Part shown: positions 19,433-39,673 of the stretch, piece after piece
Layout: every line of letters begins with the position of its first letter
Numbering within the stretch: position 1 is the stretch's first letter
From: Candidatus Latescibacterota bacterium
Lineage (GTDB): Bacteria; Latescibacterota; UBA2968; UBA8231
NCBI GenBank assembly: GCA_965217095.1
Contig: OZ244235.1
Location: 5,268,609-5,332,608, forward strand
Reading direction: 5' to 3'
Length of the DNA: 64,000 nt
Translations under genes and position numbers: made by a program
The notes under the pieces: generated by a model
What the model was told of the DNA's origin: nothing
Databases searched by the model: none
Seen by the model: only the letters and a program-made list of their open reading frames with translations

Positions 19433-19435
19433 GTA

Positions 19436-21733: not shown

Positions 21734-23780
21734 ATGCACACAAGGTCCAAGGCCAGCTCAGAGCCCCCCGGTGAGACCCACCCTTCAATCCCCTTGGATA
21801 GCGTAAGACAGCCAGAACCGAGCCGGGATGAAACGCCTCTCATTACGCTGCGGTCATTGGTTCTGGGTGCTCTGACCATTGCCGCAACCTTCTACTATTA
21901 CATAAACGAGATTCAGGGAACGGGCATGCTCGGTCATGCTGTGAGCTCACAGCTTCCGGTTGTCGTGTACGTTCCCTTCGTGTTATGGCTGTTCCTGAAT
22001 GTCCTTCTGAAACAGCTATGGCCGCGGCTGGCCCTCCGCAGGGGGGAGTTGCTGACGATCTTTGGAATGCTCTGGGTGGTAGGCACCATTCCGGGGTACG
22101 GCTGGATGGGGTATTGGGTACTCACGCTGGCGGCACCCGCTTTCTACGACACTGCCGAAAATCAGTGGGCCGAGATTCTCTTCGACTTCCTTCCCTGGCA
22201 TGTATTCCCCGACACCTCTGCACGGGTCATCGATGCCTTCTGGCTGGGCTTGCCGGAAGGTGCGCCGGTGCCCTGGGACGGTTGGTTCGGCGCAACAGCT
22301 CAGTGGTTGAGCGTTTCGGTGGCCATGGTCGGCTTCGGCCTCTGTTTGGTTATCCTGCTGCAACTGCAATGGGAAGCGAACGAGAAGCTGACCTTTCCCC
22401 TGGCTCAACTCCCGCTGGATCTGACTGCCGGATTCGACGGAGCACACGGGTGCCCCGTGATCTTCCGTTCGCGGCTGTTCTGGGTCGGCTTCGCCACAGT
22501 CTTCGTACCCGTCCTCTAACATCACATCCTACTTCATGGTCGGACTGCCGAGGATTGGGATTTACTGGGATCTCTACGACATTCATTTGGGAGAGGGATT
22601 CCCGACTTTACACTTCCGCATCATGCCTCTGGTGGTGGCCGTAACCTACCTGTGCCCCCTCGATATTCTGGCCAGCATGGTTGTCTTCCATCTGCTGGCG
22701 ATTTTCAAGGGGGCGGCTATGTCGCGGATCGGTTTCACCGTCGGCAGCGCTGAAGAGTCGTTACAGTGGAACGATATCCTTCATCTAGAAAGCTATGGCG
22801 CCATCATCTTCATGGGACTCTGGACCTTCTGGTTGGCTCGGGGCCACTTGCGCCACACCTGGCGGCAGGTTCGGTGGGGTGCCGGGGAACCTCAGGAGGT
22901 GTCGCGCCACCGGCGCGTGCTTCTGGGATTGACGATATGAGGCGTTTATCTCCTGGGATGGATGATGGCGCTGGGGATGAGCCTGCCAGCGGCGCTTCTA
23001 ATATTCTCCGTGGCGCTTTTGACCTACGTCGTGGTCGTCAAACTAATCGCCGCCACCGGATGTGCCTATCTGCTCACCGACCCAGGGCATATCAAGGGGA
23101 TCACCTTCGTGAATGAGCTGTTGGGCACTGCCCGCCTGTCACCCCGCAGCTATGTAGGGTTCAGGGTGTTCAGCGGTACGACCTTCTTTGGCAACTTACG
23201 CATTCCGGCCTGGCCTTCCCTGCCCCACCTGCTGCGCATCTTCTCGCTGAAACAACAGTCCGGATGGATAGCAGCGCTGGTCTTGGTCGCATTTCCAGTG
23301 GGATTCCTGGTAGCTGCGGGGGCAACGCTGGAAATGGCCTACACCAAGCAGGGGCTGGTCTTCTTTTCCGATAGCATCGGTCCCGGATACTACGAAACGG
23401 CTCGCAATCTGAATGACCCGGAAAATCCCGATCTCGGCCGCTGGCTCGTATTCCTTTTCGGCGTCGCGGAATCGGCGGTGCTGGCTATTTTGCGCGCCCG
23501 ATTTCACTGGTTTCCCCTGCATCCGGTGGGGGTCGCCTTTCAGTATACCATTGTCGGGATCGTATTTTGGTTTAGTCTGTTTCTGGTTTGGGCAGTGAAG
23601 GTGTTGCTGTTGCGCTTCGGCGGCAAAGGCGCTTACCTGGCGGGAAAGCCGTTCTTCTACGGTCTGGCAATCGGTTATGTAAGCGGAATAATCGTCTCGG
23701 TTTGCGTCGACCTCATCTGGTTTCCCACCGCAGGTCACAACGTTCATTCCTGGTTTGTGGAGATCAAAGCCCTGATCTAG
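21734..23780 (+). pseudogene. large polytopic membrane-protein gene (uncharacterised family) broken into three ORFs by a frameshift near 22520 and an in-frame TGA at 22938
   Basis: ORFs 21734..22519 (frame 2), 22536..22940 and 22962..23780 (both frame 0) are all hydrophobic, multi-helix and collinear. The last two are separated only by a TGA plus 7 codons, with no RBS. No hairpin follows this TGA. Confidence 0.5.
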
Positions 23781-23879
23781 CAGAATTCCGCCCTCTTATA
23801 GGTTAATCGGCAGACGGATCCTTAAGGGGGTCTCTCAATACACGTAACAAGCTGGTTGATGCTATGATTGTAGCCTGAA

Positions 23880-25382
23880 ATGGACCATGGACCTCAGCTA
23901 ATCGAACCTCACAAACACCGCCAGCTGTTCGCGGACGACGACGCCTTGGAAACGGGGTCCGGCGCCCAAAACCACGGTTGGACGCGGACCATGCATCTAC
24001 CCAAGAAGTGCGGCCCGGTCATTCGTCCTGATCTAACCTGCGGACAGAGGTCGCTGCAAAGTCGCAGCGCGCCGCAATGGAATCCCGAAATGGGCATCTG
24101 GGAATGGTGGTATTTCGGCCAGTACGTCTACTACGCCAGCTCGACCGACGGTGAGAACTGGGACCGCCCATCCCTGGGGCGTTACGAGTGGGAGGGTTCT
24201 AAAGACAACAACATCGCGGACGATCCCGGTACCGGCGAAACCCGGCGATTGACCCATGTCCTTCGCGACGAAGCCGAAGATAATCCGCAGCGACGCTACA
24301 AAGCGCTCTTTACCCGCAGGGCGGTCATCAATGCCAGTAGCCGTTTCTTGGCAACGTCCCCCGACGGGTTCGACTGGACCATTCTGGATCGCCCTCCCAT
24401 ACCCAGCAGCGACGAATGCCACTTCACTTACGACGAGTTCGGCCAGCAGTACCTGGCGCTCGTTAAGCACGGCACCGAATGGGGGCGCTCGGTTTTTCTT
24501 TCCACCAGCAAAGACTTCGAACAGTTCACTGAACCACAGCTTATTTTTCACTCCGACGAGCTCGATCGAGAGAACTGCCGGCGACGCGTACGCAAAGTGA
24601 TTGAGGACCCCGACTATATTACACCGCCCATCGTCGACGATGTGGACTATATGGCCGAGGTCTACCAAATGGCCGTCATGCCGTACGAGGGATGTTATTT
24701 CGGGTTCCCCGCTCTGTTCAATCCGTTCGGAGCCATCGCCCCACCCGACAAGAACTTCACCCGCATCAACCAGGTGGAACTGGCGTTTTCCCGTGACCTC
24801 CACAACTGGGACCGGCTCGGGGATCGACAGGTGTTTGTCGGCATCGACCGGTGGGACGGCGAAACCTACGGTACAAGCCAGATCCTGTTGACCGCCCGCC
24901 CGGTAGTGCGCCCGGATCTTGGAGAGATCTGGGTTTATTACAACGCCCTGCGTAATCCGGGGAATCGGGAACAATACCAGCAATTGAACCGCAACCGGGA
25001 ACTCTTCAGACTCAATGTGGATCCAGAGCTCTTCGAGGATGCTGGCGCCCTGTCGTTGGCAAAGCTTCGCTTGGACGGTTTTATCTCGCTCGACGGCGGC
25101 GAGTCGGCGACCATCACTACCAAACCGTTCATGCTCAGAGGAGAAGAGGTATACATCAACGTCGACGCCAAATGGGGTGCGATCTTTACCGAGATAGTCG
25201 ATGGGGAAACCATGAAACGTTTCCCTGACTGCACTGTAATTGGCGAACCAATCAGCGGCGATCACCTGCGCGCGAAGATAACTTGGCAGGGCGAACACGA
25301 CCGGGTCTTCGAGCGGCCGGTTCGTCTCATCTTCGACCTGCACCAGACGCGCCTTTACTCCTTCTGGCTGCAGAAGGAATAA
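23880..25382 (+). CDS. glycoside-hydrolase-like β-propeller protein (GH32/43-clan-like, family uncertain)
   Basis: 500 aa. LAFSRDLHNWDR-type motif. A paralogue with the same LAFSRD/IAFSRDG signature lies at 49672..51072. Confidence 0.45.
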   Translation: MDHGPQLIEPHKHRQLFADDDALETGSGAQNHGWTRTMHLPKKCGPVIRPDLTCGQRSLQSRSAPQWNPEMGIWEWWYFGQYVYYASSTDGENWDRPSLGRYEWEGSKDNNIADDPGTGETRRLTHVLRDEAEDNPQRRYKALFTRRAVINASSRFLATSPDGFDWTILDRPPIPSSDECHFTYDEFGQQYLALVKHGTEWGRSVFLSTSKDFEQFTEPQLIFHSDELDRENCRRRVRKVIEDPDYITPPIVDDVDYMAEVYQMAVMPYEGCYFGFPALFNPFGAIAPPDKNFTRINQVELAFSRDLHNWDRLGDRQVFVGIDRWDGETYGTSQILLTARPVVRPDLGEIWVYYNALRNPGNREQYQQLNRNRELFRLNVDPELFEDAGALSLAKLRLDGFISLDGGESATITTKPFMLRGEEVYINVDAKWGAIFTEIVDGETMKRFPDCTVIGEPISGDHLRAKITWQGEHDRVFERPVRLIFDLHQTRLYSFWLQKE

Positions 25383-25494
25383 GGCCGCCCGGGGGCTCGA
25401 GAGTGGCCGGGCCCGAAGTGGTCGACGCGATTCGGCCCGACCTCTGGGAAGCTTTATCGAATTCCCAGCAACGAACTCCGGGGCATCGGCTTCC

Positions 25495-28485
25495 CTAAAT
25501 TGGCTGACCGAACTCGGTAAAACCGACCAGACCTCTCACAAAGAATGACCAGTTGTGGAAGTTGCGGTTTGAGCGAAATTCTTCGTCGAACCTTCGTTTG
25601 TCTTTTGCCAAACCGACGATTGTTACCATCTCGTATCCGAAGTAGCTGGTCAGATTGGTGAGCGTACAAAAAGCGGTCCAGCGTTTGAAGCTCTCGCTTC
25701 CCGTGTTGTCCGCTACCCGGTATGGCAACGGACCAAGCCCCTGAAGCCCGACCCGTACGTCCGTTCGCGGCAACAACTGGTATCGAAGACGCAGTACTGG
25801 AATCGATCTCTTCTCATGCTGGACCGCGCGGCCACGATCATGATCGAATTGAAGGAACAGCATCTGTTTGTGTTGTGCGGTCAACTCCAACTGCGACGAC
25901 CAGCTCCACGACTTGCCGACACGGCTTACCCAGGTCAACAGATCGAGACGACGCCGTCGTTGAAACAGTCCGGGGTGAAGCTCGCCTCCTTGCTGCCAGT
26001 TTATGCGTAACCGCAGCTTCTGCACCACACTCAACCGGTGGCGCTCGAAGCTTCCTTCCAGATATCCTTCGTTGACGAAACTATCTCTATACGCCAGCAA
26101 ATCAGGCACCGCTATACTCGAGAAGATCGGAGGACGGTCATTCAAGAGGAACTCGGCAGCGCTCGAGCTGCTCAACCCCCCCTGTGTGAAAACATTGTCT
26201 CGATTCGGGTTCTCGACCGCGATCATGTAGGCATCGGCTATATCGTCAAAGATCCGGCGGAAGTGGTTCTCGAAAAAGAGATGTCGGAAACCACTCGAGT
26301 TTCGTTTCTGGTAGGTCAGGATAAGGTAGGTTGAGCGATTTCGGCCAGCACCGGCAATCTGCCTGACGGCGTGTCGGCCCACGGTAAGCGACCAGTTGGA
26401 ACTGAAATCCAGTTGACCGAAGATGTGGTACCCCCGTTGGTCGGCGTCATACGGGTAATCCACGTCGCCGTCATCTTCCCGCTGATCAGGCTCGTCGTTG
26501 TTGTTCCGGTCGAGACCGTAGGTATAGCGGTTGGGCTCCACGTCGTACATGAGAAACGGCTCGTCATAGTCGGCCACTGAATTGAGATTGCGGTTGGTAT
26601 CAGGGATTCCGTCCCCATCCTCGTCCTGCCCGAGGAAGACTCCGTCGATGTCGAAGCTGCGTTCGTCTGGTTCCAAGCCGACGATGTTTCCCATGCGACG
26701 ATCTGGGTAACGGTCGCCGTCATCGTTGTCCTGCACCAGATCCCAGTACACTGTGTTGTTGATCATGCCAGACAAATTCGTGTAGTCCAGGTCGGAGTTG
26801 TTGTCCAGGTATGTGCGCAGGCTGGTGGTGAATTCCGGGTTGATGGAGAAAAGCTCGGCCCCGACGCGACCCTGATCGAACCACCGAGTTCCGTTCAGGT
26901 AATAAGCCGATCCATGATCCGAGAAGCGCGCGCCCGATCCGAAATCGGCTGCACCTTCGGCGCGTCCAGGATAGCGGGCAAAGAGGGACGAGCGGGCGTA
27001 CTCTCCCCTTACCTGTACGCCGGCCAAGGCAATGTCGATGTCGGTACTGTAGGTAAACAAACCCGTACCCTCACCAACCCTGAAACGGACACGTCGCAGA
27101 TTCGAGTGATCGCGCATGTTCCCCTTGGACCGCAGCACGTTGCGATAGAAGGTGGTCTTATATCGCGTATGGTAGGTACGTCCCCGGGGATTGGCTTCGT
27201 CTAGCTGCGCCACGTCGACGCGGAAATCGCCTCCCATTATTGCATCCACCTCCACCGATTCGACTGGATCCTCCTCCGACAGATCGAAGAGAAAAACCAA
27301 CTGCTGGTCGCCGTCCGCGTGCAGCACTTCTGTTGCGGAGCGAATTTCGAATCCTGCAACCAACGCCTCCAGATTGGCGTCCTCGCTCACATCTACGCCC
27401 GCCTCGTGGTCCAATCGATACAGGTAGTCGGCATAAAGCGGGATCTCGTCTCGACCTCTATAGTACAATCGATGCCCGATAAATTGGGTGTAGTCTAGGG
27501 CCTGAAAGCGCCCGGTTGCAGTTGAAAACCGCCCGACTTGCGGCGATATGCCGCCGTTGTGGGCCAACACCCGGGGTGCCAGGTCCGGTCGCAACGCGCC
27601 ATTGACAATCAGCGTCAAATTCTGGACCACAGCGCCTCCCTTGCCGTCTTCGGGAGAATCGTCGGCGATGCGAACCACGATCCAATCAATGAGCGGCTGA
27701 TCTGGTCGCAGCACCCCATTCATGCTGTTGCCACCTCGGACGCTGTTGTATATGTGGATATTGGACCAGTTTAGTCCCAATTTTCCGATTCCGAGCTCAC
27801 TTTGCACTCGTGCTCCCAGGAGCAATGTCGAGTCGTGGGCTATATGCGTCTCTCCAAGGGCAAAAGTTGCGCGCGGCAGGTAGGCATGTGGCCGCTCGAT
27901 TCGCGAAGCCAGACCGGTCAATTGAAGGCGTGGCATAGAAATGTCCAAGCGAAAGCCGCTCAAGTCAGTCATCGACAAGGTCAGTGGTGAAAGTCGGGCG
28001 TTGAGGCCGTCGGCTACGACCAGGCTATATCCCCAAGCTCCGTAGCCGTCGCGTCCGACCACAGTTGCTTTGTACACCTTATTCCATACGAGAAGGAAGA
28101 TTCCGCTGTTTGGCTTGAAGATTGAGCTACCATATTCCTGCCCCGGATGCCGCGCCTCCTCCCAGAAATAGAGATCGTATCCATTGATCAGTCGATTGCC
28201 CAGCGGGCCGTAGAAGACCCTTGGCGAATCGGTATACGGAGCTGAATGGTTTGGGTAATTGTGAAAGGGATCGAAGGCCAAATTGCGATAACTTGGCCGC
28301 TCCCAGCGAAGAAAAACCCGCGTTGATTCGACTTCGGCCATGTCCGGCGTCTTGGCGATCGAAGAACCCTCGAAGGTTTGCAAGAGCACCAGGATGCTCA
28401 AAAAGCTAACCCGTAACGTCAGCCGCTGATCTGATCGCTTCACGACCTTAACAATCCCTTGGGTAGGAACGGGCGGGCTCGGCAC
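25495..28485 (-). CDS. large secreted/outer-membrane protein with Asp-rich Ca-binding-like repeats (paralogue A)
   Basis: 996 aa by the track. An alternative GTG start at 28443 gives MKRSDQRLTLRVSFLSILVLL, a clean signal peptide. Repeats DNDDGDRYPD, DEDGDGIPDTNRN, DRNNNDEPDQREDDGDVDYPYD. β-rich, with a C-terminal aromatic-rich end. About 45 % identical to 35283..38258. Confidence 0.6.
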   Translation of the reverse strand: MPSPPVPTQGIVKVVKRSDQRLTLRVSFLSILVLLQTFEGSSIAKTPDMAEVESTRVFLRWERPSYRNLAFDPFHNYPNHSAPYTDSPRVFYGPLGNRLINGYDLYFWEEARHPGQEYGSSIFKPNSGIFLLVWNKVYKATVVGRDGYGAWGYSLVVADGLNARLSPLTLSMTDLSGFRLDISMPRLQLTGLASRIERPHAYLPRATFALGETHIAHDSTLLLGARVQSELGIGKLGLNWSNIHIYNSVRGGNSMNGVLRPDQPLIDWIVVRIADDSPEDGKGGAVVQNLTLIVNGALRPDLAPRVLAHNGGISPQVGRFSTATGRFQALDYTQFIGHRLYYRGRDEIPLYADYLYRLDHEAGVDVSEDANLEALVAGFEIRSATEVLHADGDQQLVFLFDLSEEDPVESVEVDAIMGGDFRVDVAQLDEANPRGRTYHTRYKTTFYRNVLRSKGNMRDHSNLRRVRFRVGEGTGLFTYSTDIDIALAGVQVRGEYARSSLFARYPGRAEGAADFGSGARFSDHGSAYYLNGTRWFDQGRVGAELFSINPEFTTSLRTYLDNNSDLDYTNLSGMINNTVYWDLVQDNDDGDRYPDRRMGNIVGLEPDERSFDIDGVFLGQDEDGDGIPDTNRNLNSVADYDEPFLMYDVEPNRYTYGLDRNNNDEPDQREDDGDVDYPYDADQRGYHIFGQLDFSSNWSLTVGRHAVRQIAGAGRNRSTYLILTYQKRNSSGFRHLFFENHFRRIFDDIADAYMIAVENPNRDNVFTQGGLSSSSAAEFLLNDRPPIFSSIAVPDLLAYRDSFVNEGYLEGSFERHRLSVVQKLRLRINWQQGGELHPGLFQRRRRLDLLTWVSRVGKSWSWSSQLELTAQHKQMLFLQFDHDRGRAVQHEKRSIPVLRLRYQLLPRTDVRVGLQGLGPLPYRVADNTGSESFKRWTAFCTLTNLTSYFGYEMVTIVGLAKDKRRFDEEFRSNRNFHNWSFFVRGLVGFTEFGQPI
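28448..28481. repeat. 34-nt repeat copy A, TTAACAATCCCTTGGGTAGGAACGGGCGGGCTCG
   Basis: Identical apart from a 1-nt indel to 32883..32915. On the minus strand it ends ...CCCAAGGGATTGTTAAGGTC directly before the GTG start of paralogue A. Confidence 0.6.
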
Positions 28486-28514
28486 GCCGCTCTTTTTACT
28501 GACGACCTCTGCAT

Positions 28515-28537
28515 GATTCCGTACACCGTACGGAATC
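28515..28537. promoter_or_regulatory. perfect inverted repeat GATTCCGTAC-ACC-GTACGGAATC upstream of paralogue A
   Basis: 10-bp perfect arms with a 3-nt spacer, about 35 nt upstream (minus sense) of the repeat and start region. Confidence 0.4.
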
Positions 28538-29188
28538 CCATCTCGGATGCCAACTATTCAGGACCTATTTCATCGGCAACGGTATAAAGATAACCAGGAG
28601 TTACGCCGTTGTGCTTGACCGTACCTTGATCCGACAGAGACAAAAGGAAGGGGCGGTGTGAGAACGCTTTTGCCACATTCTTGTTCTGGGTGACCGAACT
28701 ACCGACTCTCAACTTTGTTAGCTTCTGCTGAGAGCCGTGATACCACGTCAGGTTATAGTCGCAATCTGGCATCAGTCACCTCAGAACCGCAAACTGAAAG
28801 GAAAACGGCCAAAACCAGCCTGCAAATGCCGCCCAACGTTAGGTCGGCTCGCACACCGCAAAGCGGCTTGCTAAGGGCCAGCGCCGAACGGAGCGCAGCG
28901 CGAGCCGTAGTGACATAGGGCCCGTGGCGTGCCCCGAGCGTTCCATTCACTCAAGCAGGTAGCGCTCCCAGGTTGAGTTCGTAGGTCTTTTCCTGTTGTC
29001 CCTCATACACTCGATGAATCGAAACGCTGTATGGTAGCCTGCATTCGCGGTAGAATGCTGGCGGAACTGGCGAAAATTGCCTTCGCGGAGCAAGGTGAGA
29101 TGGAAGTCGCGGATGACACGAGAGCAAACTCCCTCAAAACGTTTTACAATGACCGGTTTCTTAGTTTGACAGACAGGTTTCAACCTCT

Positions 29189-32100
29189 CTACCTGCGCGG
29201 CCGTCGCACTCGAATTGGGTCGGGGGGTTGTGGTCGGATCCTAACCTCCTCATCCTTCAGCAATTCGAGGGCGACGTCGACGGCTTTTTCGAGCTGGGGG
29301 TCGTGGCCCATATTGACCAGCTTCGGATCCTGCTCGACTTCGATATCCGGTGCGACCCCGATGTTCTCGACATCCCACTCGCCCTCTAGATTGTAAAATC
29401 CCCCGCGGGGAGCGGTGATGTACCCGCCGTCAATCAAGGGCGGTACGTCCCATACTCCGACCAGTCCGCCCCACGTGCGGGTGCCCACGAGAGGACCAAT
29501 TTCCTTCAGACGGAACATGTAGGGCAGCATGTCGCCCCCCGATCCCGCCATCTCGTTGATGATCATGACCTTTGGGCCCCACACTGCGGCGTTAGGGGCC
29601 GTGAACGGCTGCCGGTCTCCGAGAGGATTGTTGAAATATCCAAGTAACTTGCGCGACAACAGATCGACAATATAGTCTGCGATATAGCCCCCGTGATTGA
29701 AGCGCTCGTCGATTATAGCTCCCTTCCTGTCCTGCTGGGCGAAGTAATAGCGGTTGAAGCTCCGTTGGCCCGCTCTCGACGTGTTAGGTAACCAAACGTA
29801 AGCGATTCGACCGTAGGTCAACTCGTCGACCTTCCGACGGTTGCTCTCCACCCAATCCCGCTGGCGGAGGGCTGCTTCGCTCTTCACCGGCACGACGGTC
29901 ACCTCCCGCGCGCCGGATGTGTCCGGCTGATCGTTGACCAAGAGCGCGGTCTGCTCGTCAGCAGTGCGGTCGAACAGGCTGTACAGATTCATACCGGCGT
30001 CGAGAGCGTCACCGTTCACAGCCAACACGTAGTCGCCACCGCTGACATCGATGCCGGGACCGCTAAGGGGGGCGCGAAGCTCTGGATTCCAGTTCTCCCC
30101 GGTGTAGATCTTGACGATGCGGTAACGGCCTCGGTTGACCTCGAAATCGGCTCCAAGCAATCCTACCGGAACCCGATCGACCTCCGGCCAATCGCCGCCC
30201 CCAGTGAAAGAATGACCGATGGCGGTCTCGCCGCCGAGCTTATCGAGGATGTACGTGAGATCGGCTCGGTGACGAACGTTCGCCACCCAGGGAGAGTACG
30301 TCTCGTATACCCAGTCGAGGTCGAGCCCGTGGACATTGTCAACGTAGAAGTAGTCGCGTTGGTAGCGCCAGGCTTCCCTGAACATCTGCTCCCATTCAGC
30401 TTTAGGATCGACCTTCATTCTCATACCGTCGACGGGCAGGGCCTCGTCGATCGGCTCTATCTCCTCCCCCGCATCGGCGATTTCCCACACGTCATCATGA
30501 GTCCGATAGAGAAGCTTTTTGCCGTCTGCCGAGACGAGGACGTCTTCGATACCGTCCAGTACCTGCTTACCCTCGCGGTCTTGGAGGGAATAACGGTGCA
30601 ACCGCATCCCATCTTCGTTCGGAACATGCTCGCTGTAGTATATGACACCCTCTTCGCCGGCAAGCAGCGTCGCGTAGTTCCGTGCGGGTATGTCAAGGGC
30701 GATGATGCGCTGATCGAGACCGTTGAAGTCTATGTGGACATCAACGGGCTCTTTGTCGTCATCATCACCATCTTCAGATTTCTTATCTTCGCCATCCTCA
30801 CCGTTGTCCTCTTCCTTCTCCTCCTCGGGCTTCTCGTCATCACTTTCTGGCAGTATGGGAGAGGGCTCGTCAGCCGCGAGCACTGCGAGGTAGATCGCGC
30901 GACTGAGGGGACGATCGATGGAACTCATGTCGAGCCAACCGACTTGCAGTCCGTAATCGGTGCTGGACATGAAGTAGAGATATTTGCCGTTGGCATCCCA
31001 TGCCGGCGACAGGCAATCCGAAAGGCCATCGGTCAACTGAAACGACTTTCGTTGCTCGAGAGAGTAGACGAAGATGACATTGTATTGATTCGGCAATCGT
31101 TTGGTGTACGCGATCCACTTGGAGTCGGGTGACCACTCGGGGTAGATAGTGCGATAAGGATGGGAGAACCCCTCGTTGTCGATGAGCTCGGCTTTACCCT
31201 CGGCGACATTGGCAACCCACAGGTTGCGGTCTGCATCGGCGAAGCTGATGTGTTCGGAGTCGGGCGACCACTTCGGCGTGTAGTAGAAGGTCGGGTGATC
31301 TAGGCGCATGGTCGTCTGATTCTTGCCGAATTGGTCAGCAATGACCAGCTGGTACTCACCGCCCGCGTCAGAAAACCAGCTGATACGCGTACCGTCCGGA
31401 GACCAGGCGGGCGTGCGATCGGCAACGCCAGGGCTGCGCGTTAGGTTGCGGATCGACCCCTTCTCCGCCGGAACCGTGAAGATGTCCCCCCGAGCTGAGA
31501 ATACTGCACGTTTGCCTTTGGGCGAGATCGCTCGTCCACGGATGAGGCCGTCGACACTCTCCCAGTGAGGGCGTGCCCATGGAAAATCACCACGAAGCTG
31601 TACGGAAAGCCTTTCGGGTGTCCCACCGCCCGCGTCGAGCGTATAGAGATAACCACTGTTTGTGAAGACAAGCTGCCCCGCACCGCCCTCGAGGTCACCG
31701 CAGTCGGCATCCGTGAAGAAGGTGAGCTGTTCGAGTTTTTCTGCCTTCAGGTCGTAGGTCCACACATTCACGACGTGGTCGCGGTCAGATAGAAAGAAGA
31801 TCCTCTCACCCAGCCACACGGGGTTCTTGTCATTGGCTCCGTCCCAGGGAAGTTTCTCGACGTCATGTGTCTTTAAATCGATGATCCGAATCGGGTTGTT
31901 CTGTCCGCCGCGATAGTGCCGCCATTCGCTCTCCCACTGGAAAACCATTTGGTATGCGAGACGACGGCCATGTGGAGAGAGTTGTCCTTCTAGGAGCCGA
32001 GGTACAGGCAGTACATTCGGAAGGCCGCCGTCGAGTCCTATGGTCCAAAACTTATAGAGATACTGACGCGGGGCACTCGTTCGCCCAGAAGCGAACAGGA

Positions 32101-32458
32101 CGCGATCGTCTGGCGTCCAACCCCTCACAAGGTCGGGCCCGGGATGCCAGGTAAGACGTTGCGGTTCTCCTCCTTCCACGTCTACAACGTAGACGTCGAT
32201 GTTGCCGTCATACTCTCCAGACAGTGCAATTCGGGTGCCGTCGCGCGAGAAATGCGGCTGAAACTCTGCACCTGGGAAGGTGGTGATCCGCCTTGCCTCT
32301 CCACCATCCGTGTCAACGAGCCAGATGTCGTTTGCATAGACGAACGCAACGTGGTTCTCACTGATTGCCGGTTGCCTCAGCAATCGCGCTTCTTCAGCGA
32401 AAACTGCCGTTGCAAGCAGAAAGCTGAAGGCTGCAGACAGAACAATGCTGGCTTGCAT
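29189..32458 (-). CDS. tricorn protease homologue (β-propeller domains, PDZ, S41-type peptidase domain)
   Basis: Start chosen at MQASIVLSAAFSFLLATAVFA, a signal peptide. The track ORF extends to 32596. WD40/tricorn-type propeller signatures, then PDZ and C-terminal-processing-peptidase-like regions. Acidic insert DDEKPEEEKEEDNGEDGEDKKSEDGDDDDKE at about 30750-30850. Confidence 0.75.
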   Translation of the reverse strand: MQASIVLSAAFSFLLATAVFAEEARLLRQPAISENHVAFVYANDIWLVDTDGGEARRITTFPGAEFQPHFSRDGTRIALSGEYDGNIDVYVVDVEGGEPQRLTWHPGPDLVRGWTPDDRVLFASGRTSAPRQYLYKFWTIGLDGGLPNVLPVPRLLEGQLSPHGRRLAYQMVFQWESEWRHYRGGQNNPIRIIDLKTHDVEKLPWDGANDKNPVWLGERIFFLSDRDHVVNVWTYDLKAEKLEQLTFFTDADCGDLEGGAGQLVFTNSGYLYTLDAGGGTPERLSVQLRGDFPWARPHWESVDGLIRGRAISPKGKRAVFSARGDIFTVPAEKGSIRNLTRSPGVADRTPAWSPDGTRISWFSDAGGEYQLVIADQFGKNQTTMRLDHPTFYYTPKWSPDSEHISFADADRNLWVANVAEGKAELIDNEGFSHPYRTIYPEWSPDSKWIAYTKRLPNQYNVIFVYSLEQRKSFQLTDGLSDCLSPAWDANGKYLYFMSSTDYGLQVGWLDMSSIDRPLSRAIYLAVLAADEPSPILPESDDEKPEEEKEEDNGEDGEDKKSEDGDDDDKEPVDVHIDFNGLDQRIIALDIPARNYATLLAGEEGVIYYSEHVPNEDGMRLHRYSLQDREGKQVLDGIEDVLVSADGKKLLYRTHDDVWEIADAGEEIEPIDEALPVDGMRMKVDPKAEWEQMFREAWRYQRDYFYVDNVHGLDLDWVYETYSPWVANVRHRADLTYILDKLGGETAIGHSFTGGGDWPEVDRVPVGLLGADFEVNRGRYRIVKIYTGENWNPELRAPLSGPGIDVSGGDYVLAVNGDALDAGMNLYSLFDRTADEQTALLVNDQPDTSGAREVTVVPVKSEAALRQRDWVESNRRKVDELTYGRIAYVWLPNTSRAGQRSFNRYYFAQQDRKGAIIDERFNHGGYIADYIVDLLSRKLLGYFNNPLGDRQPFTAPNAAVWGPKVMIINEMAGSGGDMLPYMFRLKEIGPLVGTRTWGGLVGVWDVPPLIDGGYITAPRGGFYNLEGEWDVENIGVAPDIEVEQDPKLVNMGHDPQLEKAVDVALELLKDEEVRIRPQPPDPIRVRRPRR

Positions 32459-32882
32459 GAGTGACTCTCTTTGAGGCGATGGAGAAGAGCGTCCTCTCAG
32501 GCATGGACGCTGTGGAACAGGCAATACTACGCCTGCTCTATCGCTCTTGCAATGAGAAATCCCTCTGCTGCGCCATGTGAGAGAATCCCTTTGCACACAC
32601 GCGCAGAAAGACGCTTCGGGGATAGAGTCGGTAATCGGATTATGACAACGATTTGGATGTTAGGATTCCTAGAACTGGATTACGGGAAGGAGTCCTCCCC
32701 ACGAAGGCAGTTTGGGCGTGGTATCTTGGCTAACAGATGGTCTAGCTTCGCCGAAAGAGGTGGACTACTCTCGGGCGCAAATTGACATGCAATTGTGGGA
32801 ACAGGCAACACATCATTTCTCAGTAGCTGCGGTATGGCAGAGTCTTCAAGCTCTGCATAGGCAAACTGGTCTAGCCGTGACA

Positions 32883-32915
32883 TTAACATCCCTTGGGTAG
32901 GAACGGGCGGGCTCG
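32883..32915. repeat. 33-nt repeat copy B, TTAACATCCCTTGGGTAGGAACGGGCGGGCTCG
   Basis: Second copy, about 430 nt upstream (minus sense) of the tricorn start. On the minus strand it is immediately followed by ATG of small ORF 32680..32889 (...CCCAAGGGATGTTAATG). Confidence 0.6.
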
Positions 32916-32951
32916 CCTACGGGACTTTGGAAGAACGCCAATTGGACACCA

Positions 32952-33254
32952 TCAAAGGATAATTTCAAAGCCTTCAAATTGCGGATGACCGAGATAGGTG
33001 CCTTGCGGGGCATGGTCTTGGGCGTGGGCCTTGCGAAAGGACTCCGATTCAGTCCACGCGTCAAAGTTTGTCTCTGAATCCCAGACCGAATGGGATGCGT
33101 AAAGCGTGTGGTCTTCGTTGGTGGGACCGCGCAAGAGGTGGAACTCCCGGAAGCCGGGTACTTCGTCAAGAAAGGATTCGCGCTGGCGCCAGAGATTTTC
33201 GAAGGTTGCTTCGCTGCCGAGGGCGATTTTGAAGCGGTTCATCGCAATATACAT
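32952..33254 (-). CDS. antibiotic-biosynthesis-monooxygenase (ABM) domain protein
   Basis: 100 aa. MYIAMNRFKI...FENLW...PGFREFHLL...YASHSVWDSETNFDAWTESESF is the classic ABM/Dabb pattern. Confidence 0.7.
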   Translation of the reverse strand: MYIAMNRFKIALGSEATFENLWRQRESFLDEVPGFREFHLLRGPTNEDHTLYASHSVWDSETNFDAWTESESFRKAHAQDHAPQGTYLGHPQFEGFEIIL

Positions 33255-33533
33255 GGAGTCCTCATGTTATTTGGGTGTGCTGTGGGAAGCATTCTATTAA
33301 AGATAGCACTCCGGAATTATCGGGCAGTGGTCGGACATCGGCAAGCACGGGAAATGGCTTTGTTTGGAAACAAGCGGGGTGGCGCAATCCTGGAGCGACG
33401 CTGTCGAAGGTTCACCGCAGTCCGACCCGGCGGATTCATGCACAGCGCGATGCCCCCTGCTGCGCGATGAAGCGGTCGTCAATGAACCGTTGCCGGCGCG
33501 AACCGTCGTCGATTGCGGTAGCCAACGTTGTTC

Positions 33534-35090
33534 TCATAGCGGCTCGAAGAACGTCAGGTCGGCGCCAAAGCTCTCCATCGCCGCCACCTCGTCGCCGCGC
33601 AAGCGCGCCTTGATCTCCCGCGTGAGGTGCGCGAGCACGATCTCCTCGGTGGGCAGCTTGAAGGCGATGGTGATGGGCCGGTTCAGCGGCGGCTCGGCCA
33701 CGAACGGATAGCCGTTCGCCATGCGGAGCTCTGCCTCCACGCCCTCGAGGCGCATGGCCGCCAGGTCGACCCAGGGCGGCAGGCGGACGAACAGCGGTGC
33801 GGGCGTCTTCACCCGCACCGACAGCGTAGGATGGGTGTAGGGAGATTCGATCTTCAGGTGACGCGTCTCGCGATCGAAGAGCAGGTTGACCCGGTGACCG
33901 GTCGCGTCGAACCGCGTCGCTTCCCGAAGGGCCTCGCACAGCGACCCGACCGCGCCGCCGCCGACGTCGGTGTTGAAGCGCATGCGCTCCTGTTCGAGGG
34001 GTTCGTGCCCGAAAGGGGCCGGGAAGCCGAAGGAGCCCCGGATGCGCCCGGCGACATCGGTCAGGGCGTCTACCCCGTCCGGATTCGCCGGCTCCTCGAT
34101 CCACGACACGTCGCGCAGCTGCGACGGCAGCAGATGGCAGCGCAGGATCCGCTCGGCGTCGTGGTAGTACTCGGTGTACCCCCACCGCCCCAGGATCAGC
34201 GCCGTCTCGAGGATGTCGCCGGTGTTGTTCATCTCGCCCTCGTCGGGCCTCTTGCTCTCCGGTGACGCGTCCTCGATGGACCAGCCGATCCCGTCGCGCA
34301 TCTCCCAGAGACCGTTGTCGTAGAACGCCTTCACCCGGTTCATCAACGGCGTGTCACCGGTCAGGTCGGCGAGCTGTGCCAGGGACGACATGGTGCAGGT
34401 GACAGAGTGGGCATGCGTGCCGAACAGCTCGCGGTCGTAGGAGCCGTCCTCGGTGAAGTAGCGGCCGATCGCCTTCTCCTTCAGCAGGAGCGCGAGCTCG
34501 AGCGCGGCGGCGTGACCCGTGGAGCGATAGTACTTCACCAGGGGACCGATCGTGCGCGCAACCCCGGAGATGAACGTGCCGGAATCATTGAACACGATGC
34601 CCTGCTGCTCGAGCCGCGCCGCGTCCCACTCGGTCTCGGGATTCCAGTAATCGAGGATGGTCTGTATGCTCGCCTCAGCGAGATCGCGGGCCCGGAGTGA
34701 TCCCCGGAACTTGACGAGGGCGTACAGGGCGTGGAAACCCTCGCGCACGTGGTGCGGCACGAGCACGCGCGGCGACCCCGCCCCGTCCTGCCGGCCGAGG
34801 GACAGGGGCAGCGGACCGCTGTAGGACAGGAAGGCCGCCCGCGCATGCTTGTCGATGGCTTCTTCGTCGATGGCCACCTCGACGACGTCCTCGGCGTTGA
34901 GGAGGGCGTTGAGGTGCCGGCCGGGAACGTGGTCGATCAGGGGGATGCCCAGAAATGCGTCCGGCCTGGCGACCACGCGGAAGTACGGCACGTCGCCATC
35001 GTCGGCATCGAACACGTTGCACATGCAGTGACACCCCAGGCGGATCGCGTCCTCGATGTCACTCGTGTTGACGTCAGTCAAGTGGGTCAA
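33534..35090 (-). CDS. hypothetical protein, possibly (α/α)6-barrel glycoside-hydrolase-like
   Basis: 518-aa ORF with no recognisable motifs. Long coding stretch with ordinary residue composition. Confidence 0.5.
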   Translation of the reverse strand: MTHLTDVNTSDIEDAIRLGCHCMCNVFDADDGDVPYFRVVARPDAFLGIPLIDHVPGRHLNALLNAEDVVEVAIDEEAIDKHARAAFLSYSGPLPLSLGRQDGAGSPRVLVPHHVREGFHALYALVKFRGSLRARDLAEASIQTILDYWNPETEWDAARLEQQGIVFNDSGTFISGVARTIGPLVKYYRSTGHAAALELALLLKEKAIGRYFTEDGSYDRELFGTHAHSVTCTMSSLAQLADLTGDTPLMNRVKAFYDNGLWEMRDGIGWSIEDASPESKRPDEGEMNNTGDILETALILGRWGYTEYYHDAERILRCHLLPSQLRDVSWIEEPANPDGVDALTDVAGRIRGSFGFPAPFGHEPLEQERMRFNTDVGGGAVGSLCEALREATRFDATGHRVNLLFDRETRHLKIESPYTHPTLSVRVKTPAPLFVRLPPWVDLAAMRLEGVEAELRMANGYPFVAEPPLNRPITIAFKLPTEEIVLAHLTREIKARLRGDEVAAMESFGADLTFFEPL

Positions 35091-35282
35091 GGCAGGCTCC
35101 TTGTCAACGGCATCAGAAGTACGTCAAACTTGACAATAACGTATGCGCTGACCAAGGCTGTCCAGCCCTTTATTGCTCAGTTCAGCCGATTTTGGCAGAT
35201 TCCGTTTTACTGCTTCCCGTGGAGAGCGCTGAAACGCCCACCTTTCAACCCGTGAGATCCGGGAACAAGCAGGGCCGAAGCT

Positions 35283-38258
35283 ATGAGCAATCTACTCGTG
35301 CGCACGTGCTGGATCCTCGTGCCGGTGCTGGCCTGGGGTGCGGGGACCAAGGGTCAGAAGCCGGCGCACATCCAGGGGCCGCCCCAGATTTTACCCCCAC
35401 AACTGTTACTGCGCCAGGAGCGGCCCACCTACCGCAATTACGCCTTCCAAAGCTTTGTCAACTACGCGAACCACACTCAGCCCTATGATGATATCCCCAA
35501 GGCCTACTACAGCTCGCTGGGTAATTATCTGATCACCGGCTATCCCCTCTACGAGTGGGGGGAGACCCGCAGGGTGGGACAGGAGTGGGGCAGCCGCATA
35601 TTTAAAGAGAAGGGTGTGGGAAGGGTTATCGGCTCGTGGGGAAGTGTTTTCGACAGCATGGTGCTGGGGCGCGACAGCCACGACAGCTGGAGCTATGTGG
35701 CCATCGTCGGCGACGCGCTGATTGCGCGTTTTTCCCCGCTGACGCTGTCGAAGACGAATTTCAACGGCATACGGGTGGATATAACCACGCCGTATTTGAA
35801 GGTCACCGGCTTGGGATCGCGTGTCGAACGGCCCCACGGTTTTATCCCAACGACTCCTCCGACATGGGTTTCTGATTCCAAGACCCATCTAGCCGACGAT
35901 TCCACCCTGCTTTTGGGTAGCCGGGTGCAGGCCGAGCTGGGTGCCCTAAAGGTGGGTCTCAACTGGGCGAACCAGCACGTGTACGAGAGCACGCAGTTGG
36001 GCAACAGTCTCAAAGGCAGGTTGCGGCCGGACCAGCCGCTGGTGGACTGGATCATTGTGCGCTTTTCCGACGACTCGCCAGCGGACGGTCTGGGCGGTGC
36101 CGTAGTGCACGAGGTGCAGCTTGTGGTCAACGGCGAGGTGCGGCCGGATCTGCGCCGGGCGGTGGTGCGGCACCAGACTGGGGCCACACCACAGGTGGGG
36201 ACGGTTTCGCAGGCCACGGGTAAGTTCCGCCCGGTCGTATACAACAAACCCAAAAACAAGGCCCTCAGTTTCGAAGGCAGCACCTTTTACCGGGGGCGCG
36301 AGGTCCCGCTCTATGCCGACTATCTGACGCTCCTGGATCACGTGGCCGGAGTCGATGTGAGCAAGACCGCCCACCTGAGGGGGCTCTTGGGGAGTTTTGC
36401 GCTGGAATCGCCCGCAGAGATTCTGCGCGCCGACGGAGACGAGCAGCTGATTTTTCTCTTCGACGTGTCGGAGGAGCCCTACATCGAGTCGGTCGAGCTG
36501 GAGGCCGTCCTGGGCAACGACTATCGGGCGGAGGTGGCGTTTCTGCATACGGTGGGTCCGAGCGGCAAGGCCTACTACGCCGAATTCTTGAGCAGTTACT
36601 ATCACACGGTATTGCGCGCCCGGGGCAATGTGCAGGACCTGTCGAACCTCAAGCGGGTGCGCTTCGAGCTTGGAGAGCACACCGGCCACTTTGCCTACAG
36701 TGCCGACGTGGATCTGCGCCTGAAGAGTGTGGCGATCCACGGTGAGTACGCGCGCTCGTCGGTGTACGGGCGATATCCGGCACATTTGGAGCAGGAAGCC
36801 CGGTTCGACGTGAGTCCGCGCTTTGTGCAGCGGGGCGCGGCCTACTACGTCAATGCGACGCGATGGTTCGGGCGTGGCCGGTTGGGCGGGGAGTACTTTT
36901 CGATCCATCCCGACTTTCAGACCGAGATACGCACCTTTCTGGACTGGGAGCAGGCCCTGTCATTGGGCAACCTGTACGGGTTGGTCAATCAGACGATGTA
37001 CTGGCAGCTGGTGGAGGACAACGACGATGGGGACCGCTACCCCGACCAGCGGTTTGGCAATCTCCCCGGTCTCATGAACGATAGTAAGGGATACGATATC
37101 GATGGGGTTCTCTTAGGGCAGGACGAGGACAACGACGGTACGCTAGAGATCAATCGCAATCTCAACGACCTTGCCGACTACGAAGAGCCCTTTCTGATGT
37201 TCGATGTGGAGCCCAACGTCTATGTCTACGGCCTCGATCGCAACCACAACGACGAGCCTGACCACCGCGAGGACGACGGCGAGGTGGACTACCCCTATGA
37301 CTACGACCAGCGGGGCTACCACTTCTTTGGACAATGGGATTTGACGCGGTACTGGTCGCTGGCGGCGGGCCGCTTCACGACGCGACAGATGGCCGGCAGC
37401 GGTCGCAGTCGCTCCACCTATGCGCTAATGACCTACCGCAGGGAAAGCGTGGAGCGCCTTCGACGGTTGTTTTTCGAAAATCACTTCCGCCGGGTGCGGG
37501 ATGACATCGGCGACGAGTTCGTGGCGAACCACGAAACACCCACAAGGGACGGCGCTTGGGGAGACCAGGGACTCACTTTTCACTCCGTACGAACGGGCGC
37601 GTTTCTGCCCCCCCGTTTTACCAACTTTTTTCGCCTGGACGCGCTGCTCTACCAGGACAGCTATGTCAACGAAACGTACGTGGAGGGCTGGTTCCATCCC
37701 GGGTCCACGCTCAAGCTGGTGCAGAAGCTGCGCCTGCGACTCAACTGGCAGCAGGGCGGCCCGGTGCGGCCGGGCGTCGTCCAGCGCCAGCGCCGACTGG
37801 ACTTTTGGACCTGGGTCAGCGGGACCGAGTACACCTGGCGCTGGGCCAAATGGAGCGTCACGCCGCAGTACAAGTTCATGTTGCTGCACCTGATGGACCA
37901 GGAGCGCAACCAGGCCCTGCGCACGGAGATCCGTTCGATCCCGATTGTGCGCTTCGCCTATCCGCTGATGAGCCGCACGGTGCTGCAGGGGGGCATCCAG
38001 GGCTGGGGGCCGCTGCCGTATCGCCTGGAGGACCGGGCGACGGAGGCAGCGGAGAGCAACAGCTTTGAGCAGCGCACGGCCTTTGTGACGCTGACGAATC
38101 GCTCGCGGTATTTCGGCTACGAACTGGTGACGATCATCGGAATCCATAAGGATAAAAAGGAGTTCGATACGCCGTTCCAGGATCTCAGGAGCTTTGATAC
38201 CTGGAGCTTTTTCGTACGGGCGCTGGTGGGTTTTACCGAGTACGGACGAATATTCTAG
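35283..38258 (+). CDS. large secreted/outer-membrane protein with Asp-rich Ca-binding-like repeats (paralogue B)
   Basis: 991 aa. Signal peptide MSNLLVRTCWILVPVLAWGAG. Collinear with paralogue A and about 45 % identical. Repeats DNDDGDRYPD, DEDNDGTLEINRN, DRNHNDEPDHREDDGEVDYPYD. Ends FVRALVGFTEYGRIF. Confidence 0.6.
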   Translation: MSNLLVRTCWILVPVLAWGAGTKGQKPAHIQGPPQILPPQLLLRQERPTYRNYAFQSFVNYANHTQPYDDIPKAYYSSLGNYLITGYPLYEWGETRRVGQEWGSRIFKEKGVGRVIGSWGSVFDSMVLGRDSHDSWSYVAIVGDALIARFSPLTLSKTNFNGIRVDITTPYLKVTGLGSRVERPHGFIPTTPPTWVSDSKTHLADDSTLLLGSRVQAELGALKVGLNWANQHVYESTQLGNSLKGRLRPDQPLVDWIIVRFSDDSPADGLGGAVVHEVQLVVNGEVRPDLRRAVVRHQTGATPQVGTVSQATGKFRPVVYNKPKNKALSFEGSTFYRGREVPLYADYLTLLDHVAGVDVSKTAHLRGLLGSFALESPAEILRADGDEQLIFLFDVSEEPYIESVELEAVLGNDYRAEVAFLHTVGPSGKAYYAEFLSSYYHTVLRARGNVQDLSNLKRVRFELGEHTGHFAYSADVDLRLKSVAIHGEYARSSVYGRYPAHLEQEARFDVSPRFVQRGAAYYVNATRWFGRGRLGGEYFSIHPDFQTEIRTFLDWEQALSLGNLYGLVNQTMYWQLVEDNDDGDRYPDQRFGNLPGLMNDSKGYDIDGVLLGQDEDNDGTLEINRNLNDLADYEEPFLMFDVEPNVYVYGLDRNHNDEPDHREDDGEVDYPYDYDQRGYHFFGQWDLTRYWSLAAGRFTTRQMAGSGRSRSTYALMTYRRESVERLRRLFFENHFRRVRDDIGDEFVANHETPTRDGAWGDQGLTFHSVRTGAFLPPRFTNFFRLDALLYQDSYVNETYVEGWFHPGSTLKLVQKLRLRLNWQQGGPVRPGVVQRQRRLDFWTWVSGTEYTWRWAKWSVTPQYKFMLLHLMDQERNQALRTEIRSIPIVRFAYPLMSRTVLQGGIQGWGPLPYRLEDRATEAAESNSFEQRTAFVTLTNRSRYFGYELVTIIGIHKDKKEFDTPFQDLRSFDTWSFFVRALVGFTEYGRIF

Positions 38259-38276
38259 CAGACGGTGTCGATGTTG

Positions 38277-39185
38277 TTAGCTGCGAGAGCTTGGCGCAGT
38301 TTTTCCATCCGCCGCCAGTTCCTGTTCGACGAGTTCGACCCAATAAGATGAACCGAGCGTCAGGATTTCGTCGTTGAAATCATAGTCGGCGGAGTGGAGT
38401 GGTCGGGCGTGGACGCCTTGAGTGCCGCTGCCCATGAAGACGAAGCATCCGGGGTGGGCGATGGCCATGTGGGCAAAATCTTCCGAACCGAGGATGGGCG
38501 CGCAGTCGGTGTCTACGTTACCCGGCCCAGCCAGCGCCGTGGCTGCCCGTGCAGCCTTTTCGGTTGGTGCCGGGGCGTTGATGGTGACCTCGAAGACGGT
38601 GTCGTACTTAACCTCTGCGGTGATATCGTGCGCCAGGCAGATGCCTTCAACGATCTGGCGCATCTTTGCTTCGATCTGCGCGTTCACACCAGGCGTCAGC
38701 GCGCGGGCATCGCCGGAGAGTGTTGCGTGGCCCGGCAAAACATTGCGCTGGCCATCCGTGACGAAATCGGTGACCGAGACGACGCCGTTGAGCCCGGGGT
38801 CGAGTTTGCGTGAGACGATGGTTTGCAGTGCGCCGACGATTTCGGCGCCAACAACGATGGCGTCTACGCCATGATGGGGCATGGCGGCATGACCGCCGCG
38901 CGCCGTGATGACGATCTCAAACAGCGCTTCGCTCGCCATCATAGTGCCGGTGCGCATGGCGAATGTGCCGAGTTCCGTACCCGGCATGTTGTGCATCCCG
39001 TAAACTTCGTCGACGGGGAATTTTTCGAACAGGCCATCGGCGATCATCGCGGGACCACCCTTGCCGTGTTCCTCGGCGGGCTGGAAGATAAAGACCGCTT
39101 GACCGTCGAAGTTTCCGGAATCCGCAAGTGTTTTGGCGGCACCGAGCAACATGGTCGTGTGGCCGTCGTGGCCGCAGGCGTGCAT
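38277..39185 (-). pseudogene. M20D amidohydrolase (hippurate-hydrolase / aminoacylase type) lacking its N-terminal ~90 aa
   Basis: The ORF begins exactly at the metal-binding motif MHACGHDGH. The normally preceding domain is absent, and unrelated remnants lie directly upstream. Confidence 0.6.
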
Positions 39186-39189
39186 GATG

Positions 39190-39407
39190 TTTTCGTGTGA
39201 AGACGCGTGCTTGAAGGCTTAGGTCGTTTGAGAGGCGTTTCATGAGGCCTTCGCCATAGGTCGATTTATCCACGTGGGCGAGCAAATGGTGGTGGATGGC
39301 GTCGCCGATCTGCCAGTAGCCGTGGGCGAGACGACGGCCGCGGGCTTGGCTGCTCAGGTCCTTGCCGGAGGCGAAGATCTCGTCGATTCCTTCCAGCAAG
39401 GCGTCAT
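39190..39407 (-). pseudogene. N-terminal remnant (about 70 aa) of a DUF1016 / YhcG-like PDDEXK nuclease gene
   Basis: MTLDTYDALLEGIDEIFASGKDLSSQARGRRLAHGYWQIGDAIHHHLLAHVDKSTYGEGLMKRLSNDLSLQ matches the YWQIG...YG..L.K.LS.DL N-terminal signature of DUF1016 proteins. GGAGAC RBS. No C-terminal nuclease domain follows. Confidence 0.45.
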
Positions 39408-39529
39408 AGGTGTCGAGCGTCATGGGGGTCTCCGGGACGGCTTCGTTAGCTAGTGGGCAACGCGTCGGTGGCGCTGGGCCAATGGTCGAGAAAGGCCTGG
39501 CCGAGGGCACGGCCTCGCTGGAGATGTAC

Positions 39530-39673
39530 GAGCGTCGCACCCCCATGCGGCGGTTGGGCACGTCGCAGGAGATTGCCGAAGCCGTGCTCTATCTGGCCAG
39601 CGACGAAGCTTCCTACATCGTGGGGGAAGTGCTGCGGCTGGGGCGCGTATCAGCTTTTCTGAAGCGCTGCTAG
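39530..39673 (+). pseudogene. C-terminal remnant (about 45 aa) of a short-chain dehydrogenase/reductase gene
   Basis: TPMRRLGTSQEIAEAVLYLASDEASYIVGEVL is the canonical SDR C-terminus. It diverges where it meets the 3' end of the intact convergent SDR gene. Confidence 0.5.

Follow-up and report, generated by a model that had tools for sequence, protein, structure and literature searches.

What are the two large paralogous proteins whose genes flank a tricorn-type protease gene in a Candidatus Latescibacterota bacterium, and do they work together with that protease? We addressed this question in a 64,000-nucleotide stretch of contig OZ244235.1 (assembly GCA_965217095.1), which we refer to as the window and in whose coordinates all features are given unless stated otherwise. 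An earlier note, made from the letters of this DNA, had described the two proteins (here termed A and B) as collinear, β-rich outer-membrane paralogues with Asp-rich repeats, and had suggested that together with the protease they could form an envelope-associated proteolytic or uptake system. Our analysis points to a different picture, in which A and B belong to a family of very large outer-membrane β-barrel proteins, found mainly in Latescibacterota and hugely expanded there, which may serve as uptake channels for the breakdown products of polymers.

A and B are paralogues of an unannotated family

Paralogue A is encoded on the reverse strand (25495..28485) and paralogue B on the forward strand (35283..38258, 991 residues, the protein used for modelling). 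Both open reading frames (ORFs) are present as the earlier note had described them, and BLASTP aligned their products from end to end with E = 0, 68% positives and 52% identity, the latter being higher than the roughly 45% estimated before. The listed A ORF of 996 residues probably starts too early, as a GTG at 28443 would yield a protein of 982 residues with the signal peptide MKRSDQRLTLRVSFLSILVLLQTFEGSSIA; this start was derived from the sequence and the family alignment. By inspection, which is how all signal peptides were judged, B has one of typical form at its N-terminus (MSNLLVRTCWILVPVLAWGAG), and most of 26 aligned family members carry a classic signal peptide, in line with the secretion signals previously assigned to both paralogues. 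The aromatic-rich C-termini mentioned in the earlier note are likewise seen (e.g. WSFFVRALVGFTEYGRIF), including an aromatic-rich last strand (WSFFVRALVGFTEY). The final residue is F in B, but A and the family consensus end in ...GRPI.

Judging from sequence identities, A and B did not arise from one another by recent duplication; each has closer relatives elsewhere. In the set of comparison loci described below, counterparts of A were 94% (locus L040) and 74% (L044) identical and that of B was 89% identical (L001), with other paralogues at about 57–63%. The 94%-identical A counterpart (L040 10982..12910) was seen as a 642-residue ORF only and is possibly interrupted in that metagenome-assembled genome (MAG).

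The earlier note had not recognized the family, and neither did the databases. No Pfam or NCBIfam model scored above threshold for A or B; NCBIfam gave nothing, and the sole Pfam signal was a weak local match to SlpA_C (PF21620), which scored 23.1 and 14.5 bits where the cut-off is 35 and extended over about 85 of 656 profile positions. A family profile found no match among all PDB sequences even at E ≤ 10, and an exact look-up of the B product in a contig index returned no match. In Pfam, NCBIfam, PDB and the searchable literature (Latescibacteria outer membrane, DUF6785 and SusC/SusD contexts), we found no description of the family.

The family is predicted to form very large outer-membrane barrels

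An AlphaFold2 model of B was built from a 26-sequence alignment (pLDDT 72, pTM 0.72). It displayed long antiparallel strands over residues 127–235, 465–552 and 676–983, which adopt the fold of a closed antiparallel transmembrane barrel. Inserted between the strands of residues 222–235 and 465–479 is a confidently modelled domain (residues ~236–464; 35988..36674, forward strand), composed of mixed strands and helices and having pLDDT values mostly of 84–96, with lower values near residues 320–340. When the model was compared with known structures using Foldseek, the best matches were MtrB (4.5e-8) and SlpA, at about 1e-7 to 1e-8. In a separate comparison, lower-ranking matches were AlgE, TonB-dependent transporters including SusC, and Occ porins. 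According to the model and these matches, the assignment of the A/B family as very large outer-membrane β-barrel proteins is well supported, and in the structure prediction, proposed in the earlier note as the means to tell a barrel from a soluble fold, B indeed came out as an outer-membrane barrel. Counting backwards from the C-terminus on the DSSP string, and using how short and long connections alternate in it, the predicted barrel would have about 24 strands, with the insert and the Asp-rich block placed in long-loop positions that would be either extracellular or folded into the lumen.

Domains that accompany other large barrels were searched for in the same proteins. Pfam and NCBIfam revealed no plug, TonB-receptor profile, carboxypeptidase-regulatory domain or SLH domain in A or B, and the B model contains no coiled coil. 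Plug (PF07715) was unmatched at E ≤ 0.1 in both collections, PF00593 and OMP_b-brl_4 were unmatched in Pfam, and the N-terminal 125 residues of B were not modelled as a globular plug. Given that plug and TonB parts are lacking, energy coupling should be unlikely or of another kind.

Part of the N-terminal region shows a feature of its own. Residues ~45–125 of B (window ~35415..35657) are highly conserved, with many invariant aromatic, Pro and Arg positions, yet have pLDDT values below 50. This segment, following the signal peptide, might plug the lumen or bind a partner.

The family is hugely expanded in Latescibacterota

We next determined the distribution of the family. A search of 5.8 billion proteins, in which 8000 candidates were scored, yielded 235 clusters at E ≤ 0.001, of which the best 120 were mostly 950–1000 residues long and 50–65% identical; none was named, and many came from the same chromosomes. 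Extending the search by profile to 1.84 billion representatives (at 50% identity) retrieved 733 at E ≤ 0.001 and 229 at E ≤ 1e-30, with the more distant members sharing residues ~370–977 only and differing in their N-terminal third. Species-representative genomes contained 180 matching stretches, from which 74 loci were kept, together with the window, as a sample for context analysis; these 74 loci contain 106 further full-length copies. Most of these loci are from MAGs of Candidatus Latescibacterota; for some, the MAG carries the label Gemmatimonadota or just "uncultured bacterium". As counted from these loci, single MAGs carry at least 27, 20, 19 and 13 distinct full-length copies, frequently in tandem. 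The family thus occurs mainly in Latescibacterota, which belong to the FCB (Fibrobacteres-Chlorobi-Bacteroidetes) group, and is hugely expanded there. A copy number this high is the pattern of nutrient-uptake families rather than of housekeeping barrels.

An acidic block of DxDxDG type is a hallmark of the family

Both paralogues carry the Asp-rich block that the earlier note had reported, as confirmed by composition and alignment. It spans residues 584–690 of A (26416..26736, reverse strand) and 577–683 of B (37011..37331, forward strand) and consists of 29% Asp and Glu in either case, compared with 12–13% for the whole proteins (13% for A). Across 26 aligned homologues, columns of this block of ~107 residues are nearly invariant. 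Regular-expression counts found at least one D-x-[DN]-x-[DN]-G motif in all 108 full-length copies and the motif RE[DN]D...D.PY in 104 of the 108, marking the block, at the sequence level, as the family hallmark.

The earlier note had likened these repeats to the calcium-binding loops of thrombospondin type-3 repeats. The DxDxDG form can be read directly, as DNDDGD, DEDNDGxxD and DRNxNDEPD all fit the pattern and are invariant in the family. The narrower comparison to thrombospondin did not hold up, because Pfam TSP_3 (PF02412) matched neither A nor B at E ≤ 0.1 and the block is free of cysteines, the single cysteine of each protein lying outside it. The several DxDxDG-type motifs of the block probably hold calcium. 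In the B model, where the block has low confidence, the way in which short and long turns alternate in the DSSP string would place it by strand parity in a long loop on the extracellular side.

Two protein families are enriched close to the barrel genes

To describe the genomic context, ORFs were called in the 74 loci and the window and clustered by BLASTP, and recurrent neighbour families were named by Pfam or PDB profiles, including a Pfam scan of 94 neighbours. As a distance-decay control, we compared the frequency of each neighbour family with its gene distance from the nearest barrel gene. Two families were concentrated close to the barrels. Of the 253 genes no more than two positions away from a family copy, 17 encoded proteins with type-IX-like tails, but only 2 did so of the 350 at a distance of at least four (Fisher 2e-5), and for DUF6785/6784 proteins the figures were 13 of 253 versus 2 of 350 (Fisher 7e-4); these p-values are rough, which weakens the argument built on them, because the loci include paralogous as well as orthologous copies and the counts are not independent. 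The type-IX-tail neighbours are secreted proteins of ~650–690 residues that end in FlgD_ig, CHU_C or Por_Secre_tail, one group having a discoidin domain in addition. Their genes lie immediately upstream of the barrel gene on the same strand, with gaps of 2–17 bp in loci of the L019 type. The DUF6785+DUF6784 neighbours are ~650 residues long and have at least ten hydrophobic segments.

The commonest neighbour behaved differently. This family of ~500-residue proteins has no Pfam match, and profiles link it to five-bladed β-propeller glycosidases and phosphorylases (GH130, GH117, GH32). It accounted for 21 of 253 genes within two positions and 19 of 350 at a distance of at least four (Fisher 0.19). 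Being flat at 5–8% at most distances, it is simply abundant and was dropped as a specific partner. The propeller family is itself a very large expansion, with 58 copies in 35 loci, roughly 3–8% of genes of at least 150 residues in the loci sampled. Further recurrent neighbours were sulfatases, GHL6/GH42M-like and GHL10-like proteins, FG-GAP/ASPIC proteins with TPR partners, and enolase-superfamily dehydratases. SusC and SusD were absent both from the window region and from those recurrent neighbours that were examined.

A candidate family of TonB-independent uptake channels

With moderate confidence, we propose that members of the A/B family are substrate-selective outer-membrane uptake channels for the breakdown products of polymers, mainly glycans. 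Each paralogue would be made with a signal peptide and inserted into the outer membrane as a very large barrel, whose pore may be shaped or gated by the ~230-residue folded insert and the ~107-residue acidic, probably calcium-stabilized loop. The channels would import polymer breakdown products, chiefly glycans, independently of TonB. At a subset of loci, the secreted type-IX-like-tail protein encoded upstream might capture the substrate at the cell surface, and at a subset, the polytopic DUF6785/6784 protein might pass the product through the inner membrane to carbohydrate enzymes in the cytoplasm. A broader version of this proposal, which we offer tentatively, is a nutrient-acquisition module that consists of a giant plug-less barrel with a calcium-stabilized gating loop and, in many loci, a type-IX-tail surface protein and a DUF6785/6784 permease, and which would resemble SusCD in function while being made of unrelated parts and free of TonB.

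Besides the non-independence of the neighbour counts, several observations weigh against the uptake proposal. No family member has an annotation or has been the subject of an experiment. The model of B is only moderately confident, with residues 1–125 and the acidic block poorly modelled despite their conservation, and the Foldseek TM-scores to known barrels are only ~0.2; the strand count, the pore size and the placement of the loops are what we infer from this model. In genomic context, the commonest neighbour, the propeller family, says nothing specific about the barrels. A type-IX-tail or DUF6785 partner accompanies only about a fifth to a quarter of the copies, and the remaining context is heterogeneous. 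A TonB-dependent-type barrel (CarboxypepD_reg and OMP_b-brl_4, 1.5e-82) is encoded at L070 19647..22676, ~7 kb from a family copy, indicating that the family is not a simple replacement for such barrels, which exist in the same genomes. A secreted M16 peptidase is encoded at L055 4561..7461, two genes upstream of a family copy. Taken together with the tricorn protease of the window, the L055 peptidase and the L070 barrel imply that the substrate range may not be limited to glycans.

The strongest competitor, though an unlikely one in our estimate, is that the barrel acts as an export or surface-attachment device for the upstream type-IX-tail protein, in the manner of an usher, a PorV-type shuttle or a two-partner-secretion-like system. 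The tightest positional association of the family is precisely with these FlgD_ig, CHU_C or Por_Secre_tail proteins, directly upstream at the short gaps of the L019-type loci, and usher and type-IX translocon barrels are among the Foldseek matches. However, such a partner accompanies a minority of copies and neither A nor B has one in the window, Pfam detected no POTRA or usher domains in A or B, and the association with DUF6785/6784 and cytoplasmic sugar enzymes fits import better.

We regard it as improbable that the family is a structural outer-membrane or S-layer-like component related to SlpA of Deinococcus radiodurans and Thermus (PDB 7ZGX, 8AE1; PF21620), tethering or stiffening the envelope. 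The structural similarity of the barrel to SlpA was indeed found, but the Pfam scores stayed below the gathering cut-off over the ~85 residues covered, and the profile search of PDB sequences, SlpA included, was empty. Moreover, the family lacks both the SLH domain and the coiled-coil stalk, as the model shows no long helix. It differs from SlpA in its inserted domain and acidic block as well, and the dozens of divergent paralogues, 20–30 copies per genome in catabolic loci, are unlike a structural tether.

Similarly low is the probability we assign to variable surface proteins, that is, adhesins or decoys driven to diversify by phages or hosts, for which the barrel would merely anchor the insert and the acidic loops. 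The very high copy number, the tandem arrays and the 50–63% identity between paralogues would suit such a role, as would the distant members that keep residues ~370–977 and differ in the N-terminal third. Against this, it is in the putatively exposed acidic block that the protein is most conserved and not most variable, and the specific association with a family of inner-membrane proteins points to transport.

The tricorn protease lies outside the conserved context

The idea that had made this locus attractive concerns the genes between A and B, two of which were confirmed as named before. The tricorn-type S41 protease (29189..32458, reverse strand) has 1089 residues when read from its true start, a Met at codon 47, which provides the signal peptide MQASIVLSAAFSFLLATAVFA followed by EE. 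Pfam and NCBIfam confirmed the assignment, the Pfam domains being PDZ_Tricorn, Tricorn_C1, Peptidase_S41 and the β-propellers of PD40, at 1e-18 to 1e-23 each. The ABM monooxygenase (32952..33254, reverse strand, 100 residues) matched PF03992 at 7.7e-18.

Comparison with other genomes separated these genes from the barrels. None of the 74 other loci, with their 106 further full-length family copies, had a tricorn homologue within 10 kb. In the closest available genome, as judged by DNA comparison, the A counterpart (L040, 93–94%), the 518-residue-protein gene that neighbours B in the window (L006/L076, 97%) and B (L001, 91%) are found at three separate places. In L040, the A counterpart occurs together with the propeller gene, although two additional genes separate the pair. 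Homology to this MAG stops at 28554 and covers 33503–35111 and 35170–38261, these limits being gene boundaries. For the tricorn/ABM segment (28555..33502), the fetched loci of the related genome contain no counterpart. A side observation from the same comparison is that, over 23866..38261, homology to L040, L006/L076 and L001 comes in blocks of one or two genes with 91–97% DNA identity, suggesting that gene cassettes are rearranged very frequently in these genomes.

The bracketing of the tricorn gene by A and B is therefore an accident of this one genome. A single envelope proteolytic or peptide-uptake system of the two paralogues and the secreted tricorn protease would find some support in the protease's signal peptide, its location on the same strand as A and ~700 bp upstream of it, the M16 peptidase near the L055 copy, and the fact that RagAB-type barrels of Bacteroidota import peptides; yet this explanation is largely refuted by synteny and very improbable, given the lack of tricorn homologues at the other loci, the dispersal of A, B and the 518-residue-protein gene with homology ending at gene borders, an unrelated 72-residue ORF without Pfam match (28554..28772, reverse strand) in the gap between the tricorn gene and A (28486..29188), and conserved neighbours of A that are a carbohydrate-type enzyme and DUF6785. 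Of the system suggested in the earlier note, an uptake role thus remains the best guess, whereas the evidence points to carbohydrate loci and not to proteolysis.

Genes surrounding A and B in the window

On the side of A, the neighbouring genes match the family-wide pattern. Two genes away lies a broken gene for a DUF6785/DUF6784 polytopic membrane protein (21734..23780, forward strand; DUF6785 2.6e-43, DUF6784 1.2e-19 in Pfam), in which a single frameshift near 22519/22536 and a single in-frame stop (22938–22940) leave ORFs of 261, 134 and 272 residues, and which represents either a pseudogene or an assembly error. Between this remnant and A, and convergent with A, is a member of the propeller family (23880..25382, forward strand), a five-bladed glycosidase/phosphorylase-like protein of 500 residues without signal peptide. 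Profile comparison with PDB linked it to 6n1a (3.5e-10) and the GH130 structure 9fj8 (3.3e-9), as well as to GH117 and GH32. The propeller gene stays near the A counterparts in both L040 and L044. A second propeller-family member is encoded in the window at 49672..51072.

Divergent from B is the gene for the 518-residue protein (33534..35090, reverse strand), which the earlier note had listed as being of unknown fold. We identified it as a cytoplasmic (α/α)6 six-hairpin carbohydrate enzyme that lacks a signal peptide and ends in a C-terminal β-sandwich. Its counterpart at 96% is located 70 bp downstream of another barrel copy, and other homologues are found beside GH116, sugar ABC transporter, DUF6785 and GFO/IDH genes. 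The flanking proteins of 500 and 518 residues are not paralogous to each other. Directly downstream of B follows an M20 peptidase gene, and then come genes of the short-chain dehydrogenase/reductase, aldo-keto reductase, enolase-superfamily and xylose-isomerase-like types, which are used in the catabolism of sugars and sugar acids. On account of the propeller, six-hairpin and downstream gene types, the surroundings of A and B are mostly of carbohydrate-catabolic type. A promoter and terminator scan of 23500..39500 found fewer sites than in shuffled controls and was uninformative on operons.

A few further features of the window were recorded. The M20 peptidase ORF (38277..39185, reverse strand, 302 residues) begins at position 28 of its Pfam profile and may be truncated N-terminally; the overlapping ORF upstream of it (38917..39561) has a weak DUF1016_N match only. 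The aldo/keto reductase gene (42613..43606, forward strand) is split at 42930/42932 into two ORFs in different frames, which cover profile positions 3–85 and 117–289, making it the second broken gene in the window. The gene at 40888..42558 (forward strand) encodes a protein of 556 residues whose N-terminus resembles that of a lipoprotein (…LLVGCGDSSG) and which Pfam does not match. Finally, three abutting genes at 18338..21395 (reverse strand) encode a methyltransferase, an FAD-dependent monooxygenase and a type III polyketide synthase, a trio that we take to resemble the srsABC-type phenolic-lipid (alkylresorcinol) gene set.

Relation to known systems and implications

Among known outer-membrane systems, the SusC/RagA transporters of Bacteroidota polysaccharide-utilization loci are the obvious point of comparison. 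Unlike these, the A/B family has no Plug, TonB_dep_Rec or CarboxypepD_reg domain and no SusD partner, its recurrent partners being type-IX-like-tail and DUF6785/6784 proteins instead. The adjacent SusC/SusD pair that defines a Bacteroidota-type locus is not present here, so that any resemblance would be functional only. The TonB-independent channels with specific substrates, namely AlgE, the OprD/Occ porins, CymA, chitoporin and maltoporin, comprise 14–18 strands and 300–450 residues, whereas the A/B proteins are more than twice as large and have large folded loop insertions. The 26-strand barrels MtrB and LptD, which belong to the top Foldseek matches, have a comparable strand number; they share no sequence similarity with the family, which in addition is multi-copy and has neither cytochrome nor LptE-type partners nearby.

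Latescibacterota are widespread uncultured degraders of complex organic matter, and in the literature we found, the passage of their substrates across the outer membrane is not described. One published in-silico study of the phylum (PMC4454575) accounted for it by non-specific porins only. Its 20–30 copies per genome, its conserved acidic loop and its position-specific partners make the family described here a strong candidate for this missing uptake step. The result also corrects the attractive protease-centred inference that the gene order in this one genome had invited, and it provides concrete targets for metaproteomics, structure determination and heterologous expression. If the uptake proposal is true, it would assign a first role to the DUF6785/DUF6784 membrane proteins and would reveal a second way, beside SusCD, by which the FCB group organizes polymer utilization.

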